Shown piece by piece: positions 14,714 to 21,221 of a stretch of 37,726 bases of DNA. The notes beneath the pieces were generated by a model that searched no databases, had not been told where the DNA came from, and saw only the letters and a program-made list of their open reading frames with translations. This DNA is from a virus (Duplodnaviria > Heunggongvirae > Uroviricota > Caudoviricetes), in the IMG/VR virus record IMGVR_UViG_2711768052_000002. One strand, 5' to 3'. Position 1 is the first letter of the stretch. The number at the start of each line of letters is the position of its first letter. A program made the position numbers and the translations under genes.

Positions 14714-15709
14714 GTGACCGTGAGAGCACTACTGACCCCTGAAATTGCCCCGCGTATGGGGATCGTATTGTTCAGACCAGGTTCAGAGCTGATGCCCCTG
14801 TTTATGCAGGGGCGTGTACTGCTGGAGCCTGAGCCGGAACGTTATTCATCTTTCGCCAGTGGTGCCGTTCCCGCGGCATCACAACCGCTGGCGGATGATC
14901 CTGCTGTTCGGGCCGTGTTCCGCAATGAGGCAGTGATCCGTCGTGCTGGTGGCGTGGAATGTCTTGAAAGCTGGTTACTTCGTGAAAAAGGCTGCCAGTG
15001 GCCTCATTCCGACTGGCACAGCGAGAACATGACCACAATGCGACACGCTCCGGGCGCAATCCGTCTGTGCTGGCACTGTGATAACCAGCTGCGCGATCAG
15101 TTCACGGAACGGCTGGAATCAATGGCAACGGATAACTGTGCCCGCTGGGTGTTGTCTGTTGTGCGTCGGGATCTCGGTTTTGATGATAGTCACGTTGTGA
15201 CAATGCCGGAACTGTGCTGGTGGCTGATTCGTAATGACCTGGCGGATGCCTTACCGGAAAGTGCAGCCCGTAAGGCACTGAGATTACCAAAGCCTGTTGT
15301 GCCGTCTGTCACCCGGGAAAGTGACCTTGTGCCTTCGGTTCCTGCCACCAGCATCATCCAGGATAAGGCAAAAAAGGTGCTGGCGCTGAAAGTGGATCCG
15401 GAGTCGCCGGAGTCTTTTATGTTACGCCCAAAACGTCGCCGCTGGGTTAATGAGAAGTACACGCGCTGGGTTAAGACACAGCCGTGTGCATGTTGTGGAA
15501 AGCCCGCTGATGATCCCCACCACCTGATAGGCCACGGTCAGGGGGGAATGGGTACAAAAGCGCATGACCTCTTTGTGTTGCCTTTGTGCAGAAAGCATCA
15601 CGACGAGCTGCATGCGGATACCGTGGCATTTGAAGAGAAGTATGGCTCCCAGCTGGAGCTGATATTTCGTTTTATCGATCGTGCGCTGGCAATTGGCGTG
15701 CTGGCCTGA
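14714..15709 (+). CDS. DUF968-like protein (C-terminal Cys/His zinc-binding, HNH-like)
   Basis: C-terminal CACCGKPADDPHHLIGHGQGGMGTKAHDLFVLPLCRKHHDELH; common in the nin region of lambdoid prophages. Confidence 0.5.
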   Translation: MTVRALLTPEIAPRMGIVLFRPGSELMPLFMQGRVLLEPEPERYSSFASGAVPAASQPLADDPAVRAVFRNEAVIRRAGGVECLESWLLREKGCQWPHSDWHSENMTTMRHAPGAIRLCWHCDNQLRDQFTERLESMATDNCARWVLSVVRRDLGFDDSHVVTMPELCWWLIRNDLADALPESAARKALRLPKPVVPSVTRESDLVPSVPATSIIQDKAKKVLALKVDPESPESFMLRPKRRRWVNEKYTRWVKTQPCACCGKPADDPHHLIGHGQGGMGTKAHDLFVLPLCRKHHDELHADTVAFEEKYGSQLELIFRFIDRALAIGVLA

Positions 15710-15726
15710 TTTGGTGGAGAAAGTTG

Positions 15727-16092
15727 ATGCGTGATATTCAGATGGTTCTTGAGCGTTGGGGAGCATGGGCGGCGAGTGATAGTTCAGGCGTTGACTATTC
15801 ACCTATAGCTGCTGGGTTTAAGGGACTTCTTCCCTATACCAGCAAGAAACGCTTGGCTTGTTCGGATAGTGATGCATTAATTATTGAAGGTTGTCTTGCT
15901 CGTCTAAAGCAAAAAAGACCTTATGAGCATTCGCTTCTTGTGGCACATTATTTATACAGAATATCCAAGCGTAAGATTGCAAAGGCGCGTGGAAAGGATG
16001 AGAAATTGATACGTATAGAAATACAGCTAGCCGAAGGATTTATTGATGGCTGCCTTTCCATGCTAGATCTAACATTAGATTTGGACGTTTAA
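15727..16092 (+). CDS. Q: late-gene antiterminator Q (phage 82/21 type)
   Basis: N-terminus MRDIQMVLERWGAWAA and overall size match the recalled phage-82-type Q family; ATG 15727 preferred over the track's TTG 15724. Confidence 0.8.
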   Translation: MRDIQMVLERWGAWAASDSSGVDYSPIAAGFKGLLPYTSKKRLACSDSDALIIEGCLARLKQKRPYEHSLLVAHYLYRISKRKIAKARGKDEKLIRIEIQLAEGFIDGCLSMLDLTLDLDV

Positions 16093-16093
16093 T

Positions 16094-16118
16094 AATACGC
16101 CCCATGCAGGGGCGTATT
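16094..16118. terminator. perfect hairpin between convergent Q and KAP-NTPase genes (possible bidirectional terminator)
   Basis: AATACGCCCC-ATGCA-GGGGCGTATT, 10-bp perfect arms; lies between the Q stop (16092) and the minus-strand stop at 16121. Confidence 0.45.
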
Positions 16119-16120
16119 AT

Positions 16121-17452
16121 TTACTGGATGAATGACATTTGATTAATATATTTTATCAATAACTCTCTGGGTGTAGTACTCCAAAAATTTAGGTGTTCAT
16201 AATCAGTATAAACATTGGTGAATTTTTTAAGTTCTTCATCACTTTTAGGGGCAAATCGCTCATTAAGAGTAATACTGTCTTTAATTATTCCGAAGAATAC
16301 AATAGATATTTCAGGAATTTGCGATCTTCTCTCATAAGAATAAGGTATTTCTTTTATGTTAAGCAGATCTGCTAAATGAGATATAGATTCTGCGGTAATT
16401 TCTTGTTTTAGTTTTTCCTTGTCACCAAAGCAATGTATGAAGACAGCTACGACAAAGATCTTATTTATTAAAGGATCACTGTTTTTGTACTCATCGTCGT
16501 TTAATAGTTGAAAAATGTTAAGATTGCGTGAAAAAGTTTGTGTTTCACGTAAGGATAAGTTGGTTCGTTGAATTAAATCACGGATAAATCTACCAGATAA
16601 ACTATTAATTTCATTTAATGATTTTGTCTTGTCTACAAGGTAATTCCAATATATAACAGATGTTTTACATACGACGTGACCATTTATTAAACATGTGTCT
16701 GGAAGCGTGATGGTATATTTTATAAACTTGTCAAGATACTTTTGTGAGTTAATACTATAACCATAAATATGATTTATCGATGCTTTTAATTGTTCTGTGT
16801 TTGTAACTAAAATAAAAAAGACATTATTGATGTCAAAAATGTGTTTTATTGTTTCAATGACATTTGTTGAAAAACTCGGCTTACATCGGTCTAATTCATC
16901 AATTATAATTACTATCTTTTGACTTTCTGAAATGCTTTCGATACAAGATTTAAGTGAATTTATGTTTTTCTCTGATTCCATATGGTCTTCAAGCAAATTT
17001 TCAATAGTCCCATCTATTGCTGCATTGCTTGCTTTCTTCATCGCATCTTGGAATTCTTCGGAAACTTCACTAGCCTCCTGTCGTAAAAACCAACCTGCAC
17101 CAGCTTTTAGTACCGTTTTTAAACCAAAGCGAATTGCAGGAAGAGATCTCTTAATGAAGTGTTGTTTTTCTTCCTCAGGTAAAATGCTGGCAATTGCAGA
17201 GGTTATGAGAAGTAATGGAGATTCTGCATGATCCCCTTTAAAGGCATCAATATAAACAACTTTAGATTCAGTTTCTTGCTCAATAATGAGATTTTTCAGT
17301 TTGATACTAAATTCTGTTTTCCCTGTTCCCCATGCGCCGTCTATTACCAGTGGTGAAATGTCTGCCTCTGGTTTTAGCAACTTGATGATATTTTCAGCGA
17401 TGTTTCTGCGTTGGAACTCGTCACGTTCAGTGAAAGATAGTGTATCTAACAT
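16121..17452 (-). CDS. KAP-family P-loop NTPase (moron cargo)
   Basis: Walker A in KAP form GAWGTGKTEF and Walker B IVIIIDELDRCKP (the DELDR signature typical of KAP NTPases); AT-rich; opposite strand to the phage operons; inserted between Q and the late terminator. Confidence 0.7.
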   Translation of the reverse strand: MLDTLSFTERDEFQRRNIAENIIKLLKPEADISPLVIDGAWGTGKTEFSIKLKNLIIEQETESKVVYIDAFKGDHAESPLLLITSAIASILPEEEKQHFIKRSLPAIRFGLKTVLKAGAGWFLRQEASEVSEEFQDAMKKASNAAIDGTIENLLEDHMESEKNINSLKSCIESISESQKIVIIIDELDRCKPSFSTNVIETIKHIFDINNVFFILVTNTEQLKASINHIYGYSINSQKYLDKFIKYTITLPDTCLINGHVVCKTSVIYWNYLVDKTKSLNEINSLSGRFIRDLIQRTNLSLRETQTFSRNLNIFQLLNDDEYKNSDPLINKIFVVAVFIHCFGDKEKLKQEITAESISHLADLLNIKEIPYSYERRSQIPEISIVFFGIIKDSITLNERFAPKSDEELKKFTNVYTDYEHLNFWSTTPRELLIKYINQMSFIQ

Positions 17453-17575
17453 AATATAAACCTATTAACTCCTACAGTAAAAAACGAATAATACGACTTT
17501 GGGATTAAAAATCATTAACGCGGTCCGCAAAAATTCTTGTAATCTGTTAAGAGTGGTTACTTCGCCACACAGCTT

Positions 17576-17608
17576 AAACCCGCCGTCGAGCGGGTTTTGT
17601 CGTTTTTG
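17576..17608 (+). terminator. tR'-like intrinsic terminator upstream of lysis genes (expected Q antitermination target)
   Basis: AAACCCGC-CGTCGA-GCGGGTTT stem followed by TGTCGTTTTTGTT; located ~140 nt upstream of the holin gene. Confidence 0.5.
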
Positions 17609-17748
17609 TTGCTGGGGATTCGTTGGGCCTGGCCTATCCCGCAATTATCCATTGGTTCGGCTCTTTGACGTTTCCGCTTCTGATTTGCGGTACATGATGT
17701 TCCCTCAATTTGCACCTGCTGTATCAGCGAGGTGAGAGATAACTACAA

Positions 17749-18075
17749 ATGCCTCATAACCCAAATACCTGGTTGGAGTTGGTCCAGAGCTGGTGGCGTG
17801 GAGACACACCGCTGGGCGCAGTGATTATGTCGATTGTTATGGCTGGCTTGCGCATTGCATATTTTGGCGGTGGTGGGGGCTGGAAACGAAAAACGCTCGA
17901 GATTTTGCTCTGTGGTGCTCTGACTCTGACTTTTGCATCCGCTCTTGAGTATGTCGGATGGCCTAAATCTCTTTCTGTTGCCATTGGTGGCGGCGTTGGG
18001 CTAATCGGGGTCGATGCTATTCGTGGGGCTGCAATGAGAGTAATCGGTAATAAGTTTGGTGGCTCTAAGGAGTAA
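17749..18075 (+). CDS. S: holin, lambda S family
   Basis: 108 aa with hydrophobic helices and pattern parallel to lambda S (GAVIMSIVMAGLRIAYFGGGG..., C-terminal charged tail); immediately precedes the endolysin. Confidence 0.7.
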   Translation: MPHNPNTWLELVQSWWRGDTPLGAVIMSIVMAGLRIAYFGGGGGWKRKTLEILLCGALTLTFASALEYVGWPKSLSVAIGGGVGLIGVDAIRGAAMRVIGNKFGGSKE

Positions 18076-18078
18076 TTT

Positions 18079-18555
18079 ATGCAGGTACTAAATTCCCAGC
18101 GTAAAGCTTTCCTCGATATGGTGGCATGGTCAGAAGGAACGGATAACGGGCGACAACCGACACGTAATCACGGTTATGATGTTATTGTTGGCGGCGAACT
18201 GTTTACTGATTACTCTGATCACCCTCGCAAACTTGTCACGCTAAACCCCAAACTCAAATCAACAGCCGCCGGACGTTATCAGCTTCTTTCACGCTGGTGG
18301 GATGCCTACCGTAAGCAGCTTGCTCTGAAAGACTTCTCCCCCAAAAGCCAGGATGCTGTGGCACTGCAACAGATTAAAGAGCGTGGCGCTTTACCGATGA
18401 TTGATCGCGGTGATATTCGTCAGGCTATCGACCGTTGCAGCAATATCTGGGCGTCGTTACCCGGTGCAGGTTATGGTCAGTATGAACATAAAATCGGTGA
18501 TTTGATTGCCCGGTTTAAAGAGGCTGGTGGGGTGGTAAATGAAGCTGAGCTATAA
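18079..18555 (+). CDS. R: endolysin, lambda R-type lytic transglycosylase
   Basis: Near-identity over long stretches to recalled lambda R (NQRKAFLDMVAWSEGTDNGRQ.TRNHGYDVIVGGELFTDYSDHPRKLVTLNPKLKST.AGRYQLLSRWWDAYRKQL...). Confidence 0.9.
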   Translation: MQVLNSQRKAFLDMVAWSEGTDNGRQPTRNHGYDVIVGGELFTDYSDHPRKLVTLNPKLKSTAAGRYQLLSRWWDAYRKQLALKDFSPKSQDAVALQQIKERGALPMIDRGDIRQAIDRCSNIWASLPGAGYGQYEHKIGDLIARFKEAGGVVNEAEL

Positions 18556-18919
18556 GCTGGTTATCGTTGGTTTCTTCGTTACTGTCATTGGTTCTTTCAT
18601 CTGGTCGGCCAACCACTACTACAGCAAATATCAGCACGAAAAGAAACGTGCTGATGAGGCTGTACAAAATGCTGAATCTGCAACAGCCATTACCCGTAAC
18701 GTCCTGCAATCACTGCAAATCGTCAATACAGTTATAGAGGTTAACCAGCATGCAAAACAGCAGATCGCACTGGAGTCACAGAGAACCCAGAAAGATATCA
18801 AAGTGGCTGTGGCGGATGATGGTTGTGCTGCACGCCTTGTGCCTGCTGCCGCTGCTGAGCGGTTGCGGAAGTACGCGGACAGTTTACGTGAGCACTCCGG
18901 CTACAACATTACCGACTAG
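18539..18919 (+). CDS. Rz: i-spanin Rz
   Basis: N-terminal TM anchor (LVIVGFFVTVIGSFIW), coiled-coil periplasmic domain; overlaps the R stop; contains the Rz1 start in the +1 frame. Confidence 0.75.
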   Translation: MKLSYKLVIVGFFVTVIGSFIWSANHYYSKYQHEKKRADEAVQNAESATAITRNVLQSLQIVNTVIEVNQHAKQQIALESQRTQKDIKVAVADDGCAARLVPAAAAERLRKYADSLREHSGYNITD

Positions 18920-19073
18920 TCTGACTTCTGAAACACCTGTACCGTTCATACCAAATCCTCTGACTTATGGTGCCAGCCTGGAGCTGAATGTGAGTCTGTT
19001 GTCTGCACTGGCTAACTGCAATCGGGATAAAGCTGATATTCGTAAAATAGATGCAGAGAGAACTAACCATTAA
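18816..19073 (+). CDS. Rz1: o-spanin Rz1 (outer-membrane lipoprotein)
   Basis: Signal peptide with lipobox LLSGC, then a Pro/Thr-rich short mature protein; starts inside Rz in the +1 frame and extends past the Rz stop. Confidence 0.6.
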   Translation: MMVVLHALCLLPLLSGCGSTRTVYVSTPATTLPTSLTSETPVPFIPNPLTYGASLELNVSLLSALANCNRDKADIRKIDAERTNH

Positions 19074-19094
19074 GCAATAAAATTGTCAAATTAA

Positions 19095-19721
19095 TCAGTT
19101 GTCAAATGAATATACGTTAAAGGTATATGTCGACATAATTTCACCAAGTACCTCAATACATATACTTTTTTTATGAAAGATACTGGGGAAGGAACTTAGC
19201 TCTTCAAGGCATTGCACATAAGTGCTGATATCACTTGCATCACGTTCAAGGAATTTCACTTGGCCAAAAGAAGGAGTATTAATCCTAGTTCTTTGCTGGA
19301 TTATATGGATAAAATGTGTAGTTGGTGAAACTATTACTCTTGAAATATCGGAAATGATGTCTTCTTGAACTTGCCGATAAAGTAAATCCTTTGGGTAATG
19401 GTGTTTGATCTCGATGGTTGCAACATTGCCATTATGTTCAGACGTTAATATCGACTGGTTATAAAGTGATATGTCAACAGCGCCGATACCGAGTTTTGGA
19501 TGCTCACTTAAAGCAGTTAGTGTGCTGATTTGATTGAGAATAACAACTAACTCATCACGTATTTGAGTTTCATGTTTGCGATTGTAGAAGTAGCAATTCA
19601 GTTCATTTAACTTTTTATGCATCCTATCGTGACTAATTGCTTCGATCAGTAAATCCTGAATCATACTTTTCTCTAGGTAATCCGAACGGTTGTAAGTGAC
19701 AGTATTGTGCTGGCATGTCAT
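19095..19721 (-). CDS. hypothetical protein, possible PD-(D/E)xK-type nuclease (moron cargo)
   Basis: 208-aa AT-rich ORF on the strand opposite the phage late genes; GAVDIS...(~20 aa)...VATIEIKHH fits a D...E-x-K nuclease arrangement (tentative). Confidence 0.5.
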   Translation of the reverse strand: MTCQHNTVTYNRSDYLEKSMIQDLLIEAISHDRMHKKLNELNCYFYNRKHETQIRDELVVILNQISTLTALSEHPKLGIGAVDISLYNQSILTSEHNGNVATIEIKHHYPKDLLYRQVQEDIISDISRVIVSPTTHFIHIIQQRTRINTPSFGQVKFLERDASDISTYVQCLEELSSFPSIFHKKSICIEVLGEIMSTYTFNVYSFDN

Positions 19722-19764
19722 TAGTATGTAAAGGTATTGTGAATGCCAGCAAGATAACGAAGTA

Positions 19765-20118
19765 TCATCGATAGAAAAACTTTACGGCCCACTCGTAAAC
19801 CGCTTTGTAAATCGGTTCATGGTAAATACTATCGATACTATTCAGATGTGCGATCATCGCCTCCACAGTTGTAGTGGTTGTTTCTAATATTTCGATTATT
19901 GCAGGGCGGTCATCATCTTCATCGAAGTATTCGAACAGCAGTACAGGTTTACCATGCCATTCAGCATCTGAGACTCTAAGGTTACAACTACCGCTCAACT
20001 CAAAGTGAATTTTGTAATTACCTTCTACAGAATGGCCTACGGGGAAAAAGCATAGGGTGTCATCTTTGTTTAAAAGCCATTCCCATTCATAACTATTCAT
20101 TTGTGAACTCCTGTTCAT
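19765..20118 (-). CDS. hypothetical small acidic protein (moron cargo, upstream partner of 19095..19721)
   Basis: 117-aa AT-rich ORF with RBS GGAG before the ATG; acidic stretch EYFDEDDDRPAIIEILETTTTT; co-oriented and tightly spaced with the downstream 208-aa ORF. Confidence 0.5.
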   Translation of the reverse strand: MNRSSQMNSYEWEWLLNKDDTLCFFPVGHSVEGNYKIHFELSGSCNLRVSDAEWHGKPVLLFEYFDEDDDRPAIIEILETTTTTVEAMIAHLNSIDSIYHEPIYKAVYEWAVKFFYR

Positions 20119-20250
20119 TGAGTTTCAACAACTATCAACTACATCCAGCGAAGCATAAAAGATCGTTTATGGCAAAACCGGAGTGGAGTGCGATTCGATT
20201 CTGAGAAGGATGCCACGTATCGCACGCGAACCATCCAAGAGGATTATGCA

Positions 20251-20601
20251 ATGCCACCACGAACCCCAAAAGCCTGCCGCGTTCGCGGCTGCCCCCATAC
20301 CACCACTGACTCGTCAGGCTACTGCGAAAGCCACAAAAGCGAAGGCTGGAAGCAATACAAGCCGGGCCAGTCCCGCCATCAGCGTGGTTATGGTTCGAAG
20401 TGGGACGGTATCCGCGCGCGTGTCCTGAAGCGTGACAAAGGTCTGTGTCAGTTATGTCTGCGTGATGGTGTGGTGCACGAGGCGAAAACCGTTGACCACA
20501 TCATCCCTAAAGCGCATGGCGGCACTGATGCCGACTGTAATCTGCAGAGTCTGTGCTGGCCGTGTCATAAGGCGAAGACGGCCCGTGAACGGCTGAAGTG
20601 A
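20251..20601 (+). CDS. HNH endonuclease (terminase-associated)
   Basis: Cys-rich zinc-finger/HNH motifs (CRVRGCPH...CESH; DHIIPKAHGGTDADCNLQSLCWPCHKAKT); located immediately upstream of terS as in HK97-like packaging modules. Confidence 0.8.
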   Translation: MPPRTPKACRVRGCPHTTTDSSGYCESHKSEGWKQYKPGQSRHQRGYGSKWDGIRARVLKRDKGLCQLCLRDGVVHEAKTVDHIIPKAHGGTDADCNLQSLCWPCHKAKTARERLK

Positions 20602-20726
20602 TAATGATTCTCAACCGCCAGAGGGGAGGGGCGGGTCAAATCTCTGTGACCTGACGCCTTCAGGACTGCCCGCCCCATCGTTTTTTTATACCCGCGAAAA
20701 ATGAAATTTAACCAGGAGTGCCGCAT

Positions 20727-21221
20727 ATGGCTGGAACGGCGGGGCGTTCCGGGCGTCGCCCCAAGCCAACGGCGCGCAAGGCGCTGGCCGGAAACCCCGG
20801 CAAGCGAGCCCTGAATAAAGATGAACCTGTTTTTACGCCCATCAAAGGTGTTGAGCCACCGGAGTGGTTCGCTGAAGAAGATCTCCCTCTCGCCACGATC
20901 ATGTGGCAACTGACAACCAAAGAACTCTGCGGTCAGGGCCTGCTGTGCGTGACTGACCTCGCGGTGCTTGAGCGGTGGTGCGTGGCCTATGAGTTCTGGC
21001 GACGTGCCGTGAAAAATATTGCCAGCCAGGGCAACACCATTACCGGTGCAATGGGCGGTATGGTCAAAAACCCGGAGCTGACCGCCAAGAAAGAACAGGA
21101 GTCCGAGATGAGCAGCACGGGGGCAATGCTCGGACTCGACCCCAGCAGCCGCCAGCGTCTGATTGGCCTGGCGGGGCAGAAGAAAGCCACTAACCCGTTT
21201 CTGAAAATCATCGAGTCATGA
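20727..21221 (+). CDS. terminase small subunit (P27-family-like)
   Basis: N-terminal basic segment ([29 protein letters not shown]) typical of P27-type small terminases; AGGAG RBS 10 nt before ATG 20727; overlaps terL start. Confidence 0.8.

Follow-up and report, generated by a model that had tools for sequence, protein, structure and literature searches.

We conclude that two neighboring genes in an AT-rich insert of an e14/SfV-like prophage, located where the lysis cassette gives way to the packaging genes, are probably two independent single-gene morons stacked in one slot, of which the first (gene A) would be a stand-alone anti-phage nuclease, and the second (gene B) a separate gene. The window, i.e. 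the whole stretch of 37,726 nucleotides of the virus record IMGVR_UViG_2711768052_000002, is 100% identical in its DNA to a prophage of E. coli strain 100181 (locus L001), with a difference in the Q-to-holin slot. In that strain the prophage is integrated beside yejO and comprises e14/SfV-like regulatory genes, HK97-type head genes and Mu-like contractile-tail genes.

The insert extends from the stop codon of Rz1 to the start codon of the HNH gene (19074..20250), and in relatives of the phage the slot is found empty or differently occupied. Its conserved left boundary is the last lysis gene, a Rz1/LysC-like spanin ORF (18750..19073, plus strand) that is convergent with A, while its conserved right boundary is the HNH endonuclease gene (20251..20601, plus strand), located 5' of a P27-family terS and terL. 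The initial annotation had placed two co-oriented, AT-rich minus-strand ORFs (19095-19721 and 19765-20118) here, inside the plus-strand late region, with Rz1 ending on one side at 19073 and HNH and the packaging genes beginning on the other at 20251, and all of this is correct. The sizes of 208 and 117 aa given for them describe the extents of the ORFs but not the proteins. The true starts of both genes are almost certainly internal to the longest ORFs, because PGAP annotates products of 189 and 111 aa in the identical prophage, because the alignment to the PHROG profiles phrog_12494 and phrog_14397 sets in at residues 20 and 7, respectively, and because the diverged homologs all begin at the corresponding methionine (MIQ.../MN...). 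Thus, A would start with the ATG at 19664 and encode 189 aa (19095..19664, minus strand; WP_000613841.1, phrog_12494), and B would start with the ATG at 20100, preceded by an AGGAG ribosome-binding site (RBS), and encode 111 aa (19765..20100, minus strand; WP_001089762.1, phrog_14397), which leaves a gap of 100 nt between them. The GC content is 0.356 for A, 0.402 for B and 0.381 for the entire insert, as compared to 0.489 for the lysis genes and 0.553 for the HNH-terL region; along the insert it remains within 0.33-0.40, against 0.49-0.58 on either side. Protein-level homologs at 38-72% identity are present in other Enterobacterales genera, and on these grounds of sequence conservation we regard both A and B as genuine genes.

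The product of A is a soluble protein composed of a single domain (pI 5.9, no hydrophobic segment). The stretch GAVDIS...VATIEIKHH, in which a D...E-x-K arrangement typical of nucleases had been suspected, is indeed found in A, and no family member departs from its D, E and K residues: when 31 sequences were aligned, the most divergent at 19% identity, K30, E32, D64, E85 and K87 were the only columns without any change. An AlphaFold2 model built on the family alignment (pLDDT 83.9, pTM 0.84) exhibits the succession of elements H29-46, E50-53, E65-68, E80-89, H97-108 and E117-127, which is the canonical α-β-β-β-α-β core of the PD-(D/E)xK nucleases. When the invariant residues are placed on this model, E32 falls in helix α1, D64 directly before β2, and the E85-x-K87 pair in β3. 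The model argues strongly for the PD-(D/E)xK (restriction endonuclease-like) fold, and together with the alignment it leads us to predict, confidently though with some reservation, that A is an active nuclease of this fold, with K30, E32, D64, E85 and K87 as the putative catalytic residues.

The relationships of A to characterized nucleases are distant. Its best structural matches are Type II restriction endonucleases (REases) of the EcoRV-like branch (SwaI, BglI, EcoRV, HincII and MspI). Against the assignment stands that Foldseek returned nothing significant for A in the PDB and BFVD, and that the profile of A gave no match to the PDB sequences. The earlier remark that no family could be recognized for either protein was confirmed for A and B alike, as neither matches any entry in Pfam, NCBIfam or PADLOC; among the 31 relatives of A just one, a distant member, matches the Pfam family HSDR_N (E 1.4e-4). 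When 1.84 billion representatives were searched exhaustively with a HMMER profile, 42 clusters came up at E<=1e-3, hence the family is small. The homologs retrieved by a word-index search come from Enterobacterales only, with at least 58% identity, and A is kept at 50-72% identity over at least five genera in the same phage slot. Neither the literature open to searching nor the supplements of DefensePredictor contain the accession numbers of A and B or their PHROG identifiers. The fold of A is very well known and its genomic niche is of a familiar kind, but the family itself is small and undescribed.

B is a small acidic protein, as had been noted before (pI 4.56, 20 D+E versus 8 K+R residues), it has no hydrophobic segment, and it is cytoplasmic. 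Structure prediction had been suggested for both proteins; for A it provided the confident nuclease-like fold described above, while the AlphaFold2 model of B, with a β-rich N-terminal part and two C-terminal helices, has a pLDDT of 53 and is too unreliable to be used. No significant match of B was found in the PDB; the similarity of its residues ~47-109 to the CPR-C4 cysteine protease (PDB 7ob6), with the common stretch '...PIYK.V.E.A...F', is non-significant (E 0.17). About 25 full-length sequences were found for the alignment of B, and its family members in Hafnia, Serratia, Citrobacter and Pantoea (38-64% identity) are all annotated as hypothetical.

The initial annotation had interpreted the two genes as a possible toxin-antitoxin (TA), abortive-infection or nuclease-immunity module; on this reading B would restrain the nuclease A until infection. 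In its favor, A and B are adjacent and co-oriented, with a small acidic protein encoded upstream of a nuclease candidate, and their linkage is stable in ~75 E. coli genomes and ~30 IMG/VR contigs. We carried out a census of 112 loci, which were gathered by looking up the exact proteins and by back-translated scans across the genomes of IMG/VR and GTDB, and all of which were searched by tblastn with both proteins. Adjacency of A and B is confined to loci whose two genes share at least 96% identity with the window, all of them copies of the same E. coli cassette. B is absent from all 35 loci with diverged A (50-71% identity; Enterobacter, Citrobacter, Yersinia, Proteus and metagenomic phages), and A is absent from all 17 loci with diverged B (50-72% identity), to which three more, likewise solitary, B loci in Pantoea and Serratia can be added. 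Homologs of B stand alone in the same slot of other prophages. Even within E. coli (L079/L080) A is found at 96% identity with a 151-aa gene in the place of B; this gene is unrelated to B and runs in the other direction. No gene besides A separates Rz from terS or its neighbor in Citrobacter, Yersinia and several IMG/VR phages.

An arrangement that could represent a swapped partner is that of the Enterobacter prophages (L002-L007 and L109), where a 72-77-aa acidic ORF (e.g. L002, 5677-5910) is located directly upstream of A, in the position of B. This ORF has no family match and no sequence relation to B, nothing of that kind is present upstream of A in Yersinia, and no recurrent small neighbor was seen among the distant relatives of A. 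The neighbor of one distant relative (in L113) was considered as a tandem paralog and rejected, as it exhibits no BLASTP similarity. A scan of positions 15500-21000 against Rfam for an RNA antitoxin or other non-coding RNA returned nothing, and neither A nor B matches the TA models or those of PADLOC. On the basis of the co-occurrence census and the gene tables we rejected the TA/immunity pair, which we now consider very improbable, and the two-gene system as originally proposed is not supported; since the pair is not co-conserved, which the initial annotation had itself named as an outcome speaking against its module, it is highly probable that A and B are independent. The earlier interpretation is thus supported in part, for the nuclease motif and not for the module, and the case illustrates that adjacency within a hotspot is not equivalent to functional pairing.

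The DNA upstream of B carries a trace of a separate origin of this gene. Next to the 68 nt that precede B, at about 20169-20196 (also delimited as about 20155-20196), there is a scar of the start of a Terminase_2-type terS, comprising approximately its first 9 codons and the RBS (the upstream region and the scar together span 20101..20196 on the minus strand, as defined by alignment with loci in which B abuts a real terS). The scar, roughly 30 nt long, sits before the resident HNH gene; the plus strand reads ATGGCAAAACCGGAG.... The window has the sequence CCGGTTTTGCCATAAA here, whose opposite strand gives the start of a terS (ATG GCA AAA CCG GAG...) with its RBS, and both this sequence and the 68-nt spacing recur in phages where B abuts a genuine terS (MAKPDW...). 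Taken together, the scar and the spacing indicate that B entered separately, as a module of another lambdoid phage, which also speaks against joint acquisition of A and B as a TA or immunity unit; its upstream region and a piece of a foreign terS came along with it. As for transcription signals, the conserved ...GCCATGTATAATCC... located upstream of A in other genera was considered as a promoter of A and rejected, since it is where the divergent terS has its start codon and RBS, and the promoter-like sites in the region of the window are weak (TTTACA-17-CACAAT upstream of A) and do not exceed those in shuffled sequence.

The slot between the lysis and packaging genes is a variable cargo hotspot. 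In otherwise different phages, A and the last lysis gene (Rz/Rz1) converge at each of the loci inspected, and B and the first packaging gene diverge without exception. The full cassette is present in 73-75 of 5426 complete E. coli genomes; a 1401-base query matched at least in part 572 genomes, and a 2061-base query with deeper flanks matched 1231, mostly in the flanks only. In strain EC7 (L129) the slot is empty, with 26 nt between Rz1 and HNH. In further E. coli prophages that have these same flanks it is occupied by other genes: in E. coli LD91-1 (L122, 842-2029) by an antisense gene for a ClpP-like protease subunit (PF00574, 2e-12) together with one for a 182-aa hypothetical protein, in L123 by a 169-aa gene in the sense orientation, in L124 by an antisense 83-aa gene, and in L125 by a gene of the GrlR family. 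Neither the ClpP-like nor the 182-aa gene is represented in PADLOC, and the two may constitute another uncharacterized cargo module.

Among the occupants of the cargo slots in this phage lineage there are defense genes, which lends contextual support to a defense role of A. In Proteus prophages (L104, 2823-5723; also L020 and L105) a complete Lamassu system, with LmuA (Cap4/DUF4297 nuclease, 2e-148) and the LmuB ATPase (5e-237), is located immediately upstream of the A homolog in the lysis-to-HNH slot. In the window itself, the Q-to-holin slot (16121-17452, minus strand) harbors an antisense gene for a 443-aa KAP-family P-loop NTPase with a GC content of 0.325, which matches the PADLOC candidate PDC-S20 at 7.6e-177 and, more weakly, PifA and QatA; strain 100181 has genes for a caspase-family and a TIR-domain protein in the same slot instead (L001, 17171-18548). 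A function in defense is what we tentatively propose for A, with a little less than even confidence.

The slot corresponds to the position of bor in lambda, where antisense cargo is located just downstream of Rz/Rz1. Morons of the bor type share with A and B the orientation against the late operon, the deviant composition and the variable occupancy of a site between conserved modules, but the products of A and B are unrelated to Bor. Defense hotspots in prophages have been described for P2/P4 (PMC9122126), and the logic of the slot is the same, except that the P2/P4 hotspots are found at other positions and in other phage families. In the library searched we found no literature that names the slot described here, in e14/SfV-like or HK97-like prophages, as a defense hotspot.

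If A is a nuclease, it is a solitary one. No methyltransferase was found next to it in the window, in the E. coli relatives, in other genera or among the distant relatives, and a Type II restriction-modification system was accordingly rejected. From the EcoRV-like Type II REases A differs by the lack of detectable sequence similarity and of an adjacent cognate methyltransferase. In one Yersinia prophage (L008, 4276-5722 and 9875-10816) ParB_N-like and Mom-like genes are present upstream of A, and a gene for a D12-class methyltransferase lies ~3.3 kb from A, on the far side of the lysis genes. They serve the phage in DNA modification and do not recur as partners of A.

Small solitary nucleases of the PD-(D/E)xK fold that are tolerated without a methyltransferase, because they stay inactive until licensed, are exemplified by MutH and its relationship to Sau3AI; A has no sequence relation to MutH and no known activator, thus the parallel is an analogy only. 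With Shedu (SduA, a PD-(D/E)xK nuclease of the DUF4263 family), Mrr-type Type IV enzymes and HepS, A has in common the character of a solitary nuclease effector, carried as mobile or prophage cargo without a modification enzyme. However, A is much smaller than Shedu and possesses no additional sensor domain or reader of modified bases. A search of PADLOC-DB v2.0.0 (including Shedu, Mrr-like systems, Lamassu, PD-T4/T7/lambda and the PDC candidates) gave no match for A or B at E<=1, and hence none of the Shedu or Mrr type for A, while the neighboring KAP NTPase served as a positive control with its PDC-S20 match. HepS is a partner-less, prophage-borne HEPN nuclease that remains latent until it is activated by a phage protein (PMC13043305). 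It differs from A, for which the PD-(D/E)xK fold is predicted, in its fold (HEPN) and in that it cleaves tRNA.

The missing methyltransferase would also be accounted for if A were a free-standing homing endonuclease of temperate phages, which would cut a long target at the lysis-terminase junction of relatives devoid of A and spread by recombinational repair. Homing endonucleases with the PD-(D/E)xK fold do exist, e.g. I-Ssp6803I, and several features would fit: A is a solitary nuclease candidate without a partner, its distribution among near-identical prophages is patchy, and it always takes the same place, converging with Rz/Rz1 directly ahead of the packaging genes, in otherwise different phages of E. 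coli, Enterobacter, Citrobacter, Yersinia and Proteus. However, many unrelated genes occur in the same slot, so the position of A is explained by a general cargo hotspot. The flanks of the carriers are heterogeneous, with P27 or Terminase_2 terS, HNH, ParB/Mom, Lamassu or B on the upstream side and differing spanins on the downstream side, and neither a conserved target nor homology arms are evident in the loci compared. Besides, A is antisense to the late operon, whereas homing requires expression during co-infection, and some of the distant relatives of A are located among chromosomal housekeeping genes, e.g. RecJ/TusA and CopC/CopD. We therefore regard homing as the main function of A as improbable.

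It could also be argued that A is an orphan or degenerate Type II REase, or a domesticated DNA-binding relic, and that both genes are neutral, hitch-hiking cargo. The best structural matches of A are, as mentioned above, to Type II REases, no methyltransferase is adjacent to A, truncated copies of A exist, and the family is small (42 clusters). On the other hand, the catalytic constellation is invariant down to 19% identity, which argues for catalysis retained under purifying selection rather than for a relic, and the conservation of A across genera in one and the same slot does not suggest neutral cargo. This explanation, too, we consider unlikely to be correct.

Returning to A and B as independently mobile morons in the lysis-to-packaging slot of an e14/SfV-like prophage, we envisage the following mechanism. 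A would be a small, soluble, single-domain, metal-dependent PD-(D/E)xK endonuclease with E32, D64, E85 and K87 as catalytic residues; it would be expressed from the prophage, against the direction of the late operon, and would cut the DNA of an incoming or replicating foreign phage without the help of any other protein. As there is neither a methyltransferase nor a recurrent partner, A is tolerated alone, and sparing of self DNA would have to be achieved by another route. First, the specificity of A could be directed to modified or structured DNA, or to a long and rare site. Second, the enzyme could remain latent until it receives a cue from the phage, as in the case of MutH or HepS. Third, its expression could be so low as to be harmless. 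That a 189-aa enzyme of the restriction fold would leave its host uncut although no methyltransferase accompanies it poses a mechanistic problem, modest but concrete. In a more speculative version, which we judge rather unlikely, A would be the founder of a new single-gene anti-phage system, namely a minimal, ~190-aa enzyme of the REase fold that would protect lysogens although it has neither methyltransferase nor partner nor sensor domain, with discrimination between self and non-self built in, either by recognition of modified or structured phage DNA or by activation through a phage protein. As a variant, A may double as a homing or marker-exclusion nuclease directed against the lysis-terminase junction of rival temperate phages.

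Should A prove to be active and to protect lysogens, a very small single-gene effector would join the defense repertoire of prophages, and the junction between lysis and packaging genes in e14/SfV-like, HK97-like and lambdoid prophages, where Lamassu lands as well, would be a slot for defense cargo worth mining. For the purpose of annotation, we suggest 'PD-(D/E)xK nuclease-like, solitary' for PHROG 12494/WP_000613841.1 and 'independent moron' for PHROG 14397, rather than the description of the two as an operon.

Finally, A has decayed in some E. coli prophages: in some of them (L044-L046 / L110-L112) only its first 38 codons are kept, next to an intact B, and in others (L028 / L082) the match to A stops at residue 173. 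Judging from these decayed copies, A appears to be dispensable.
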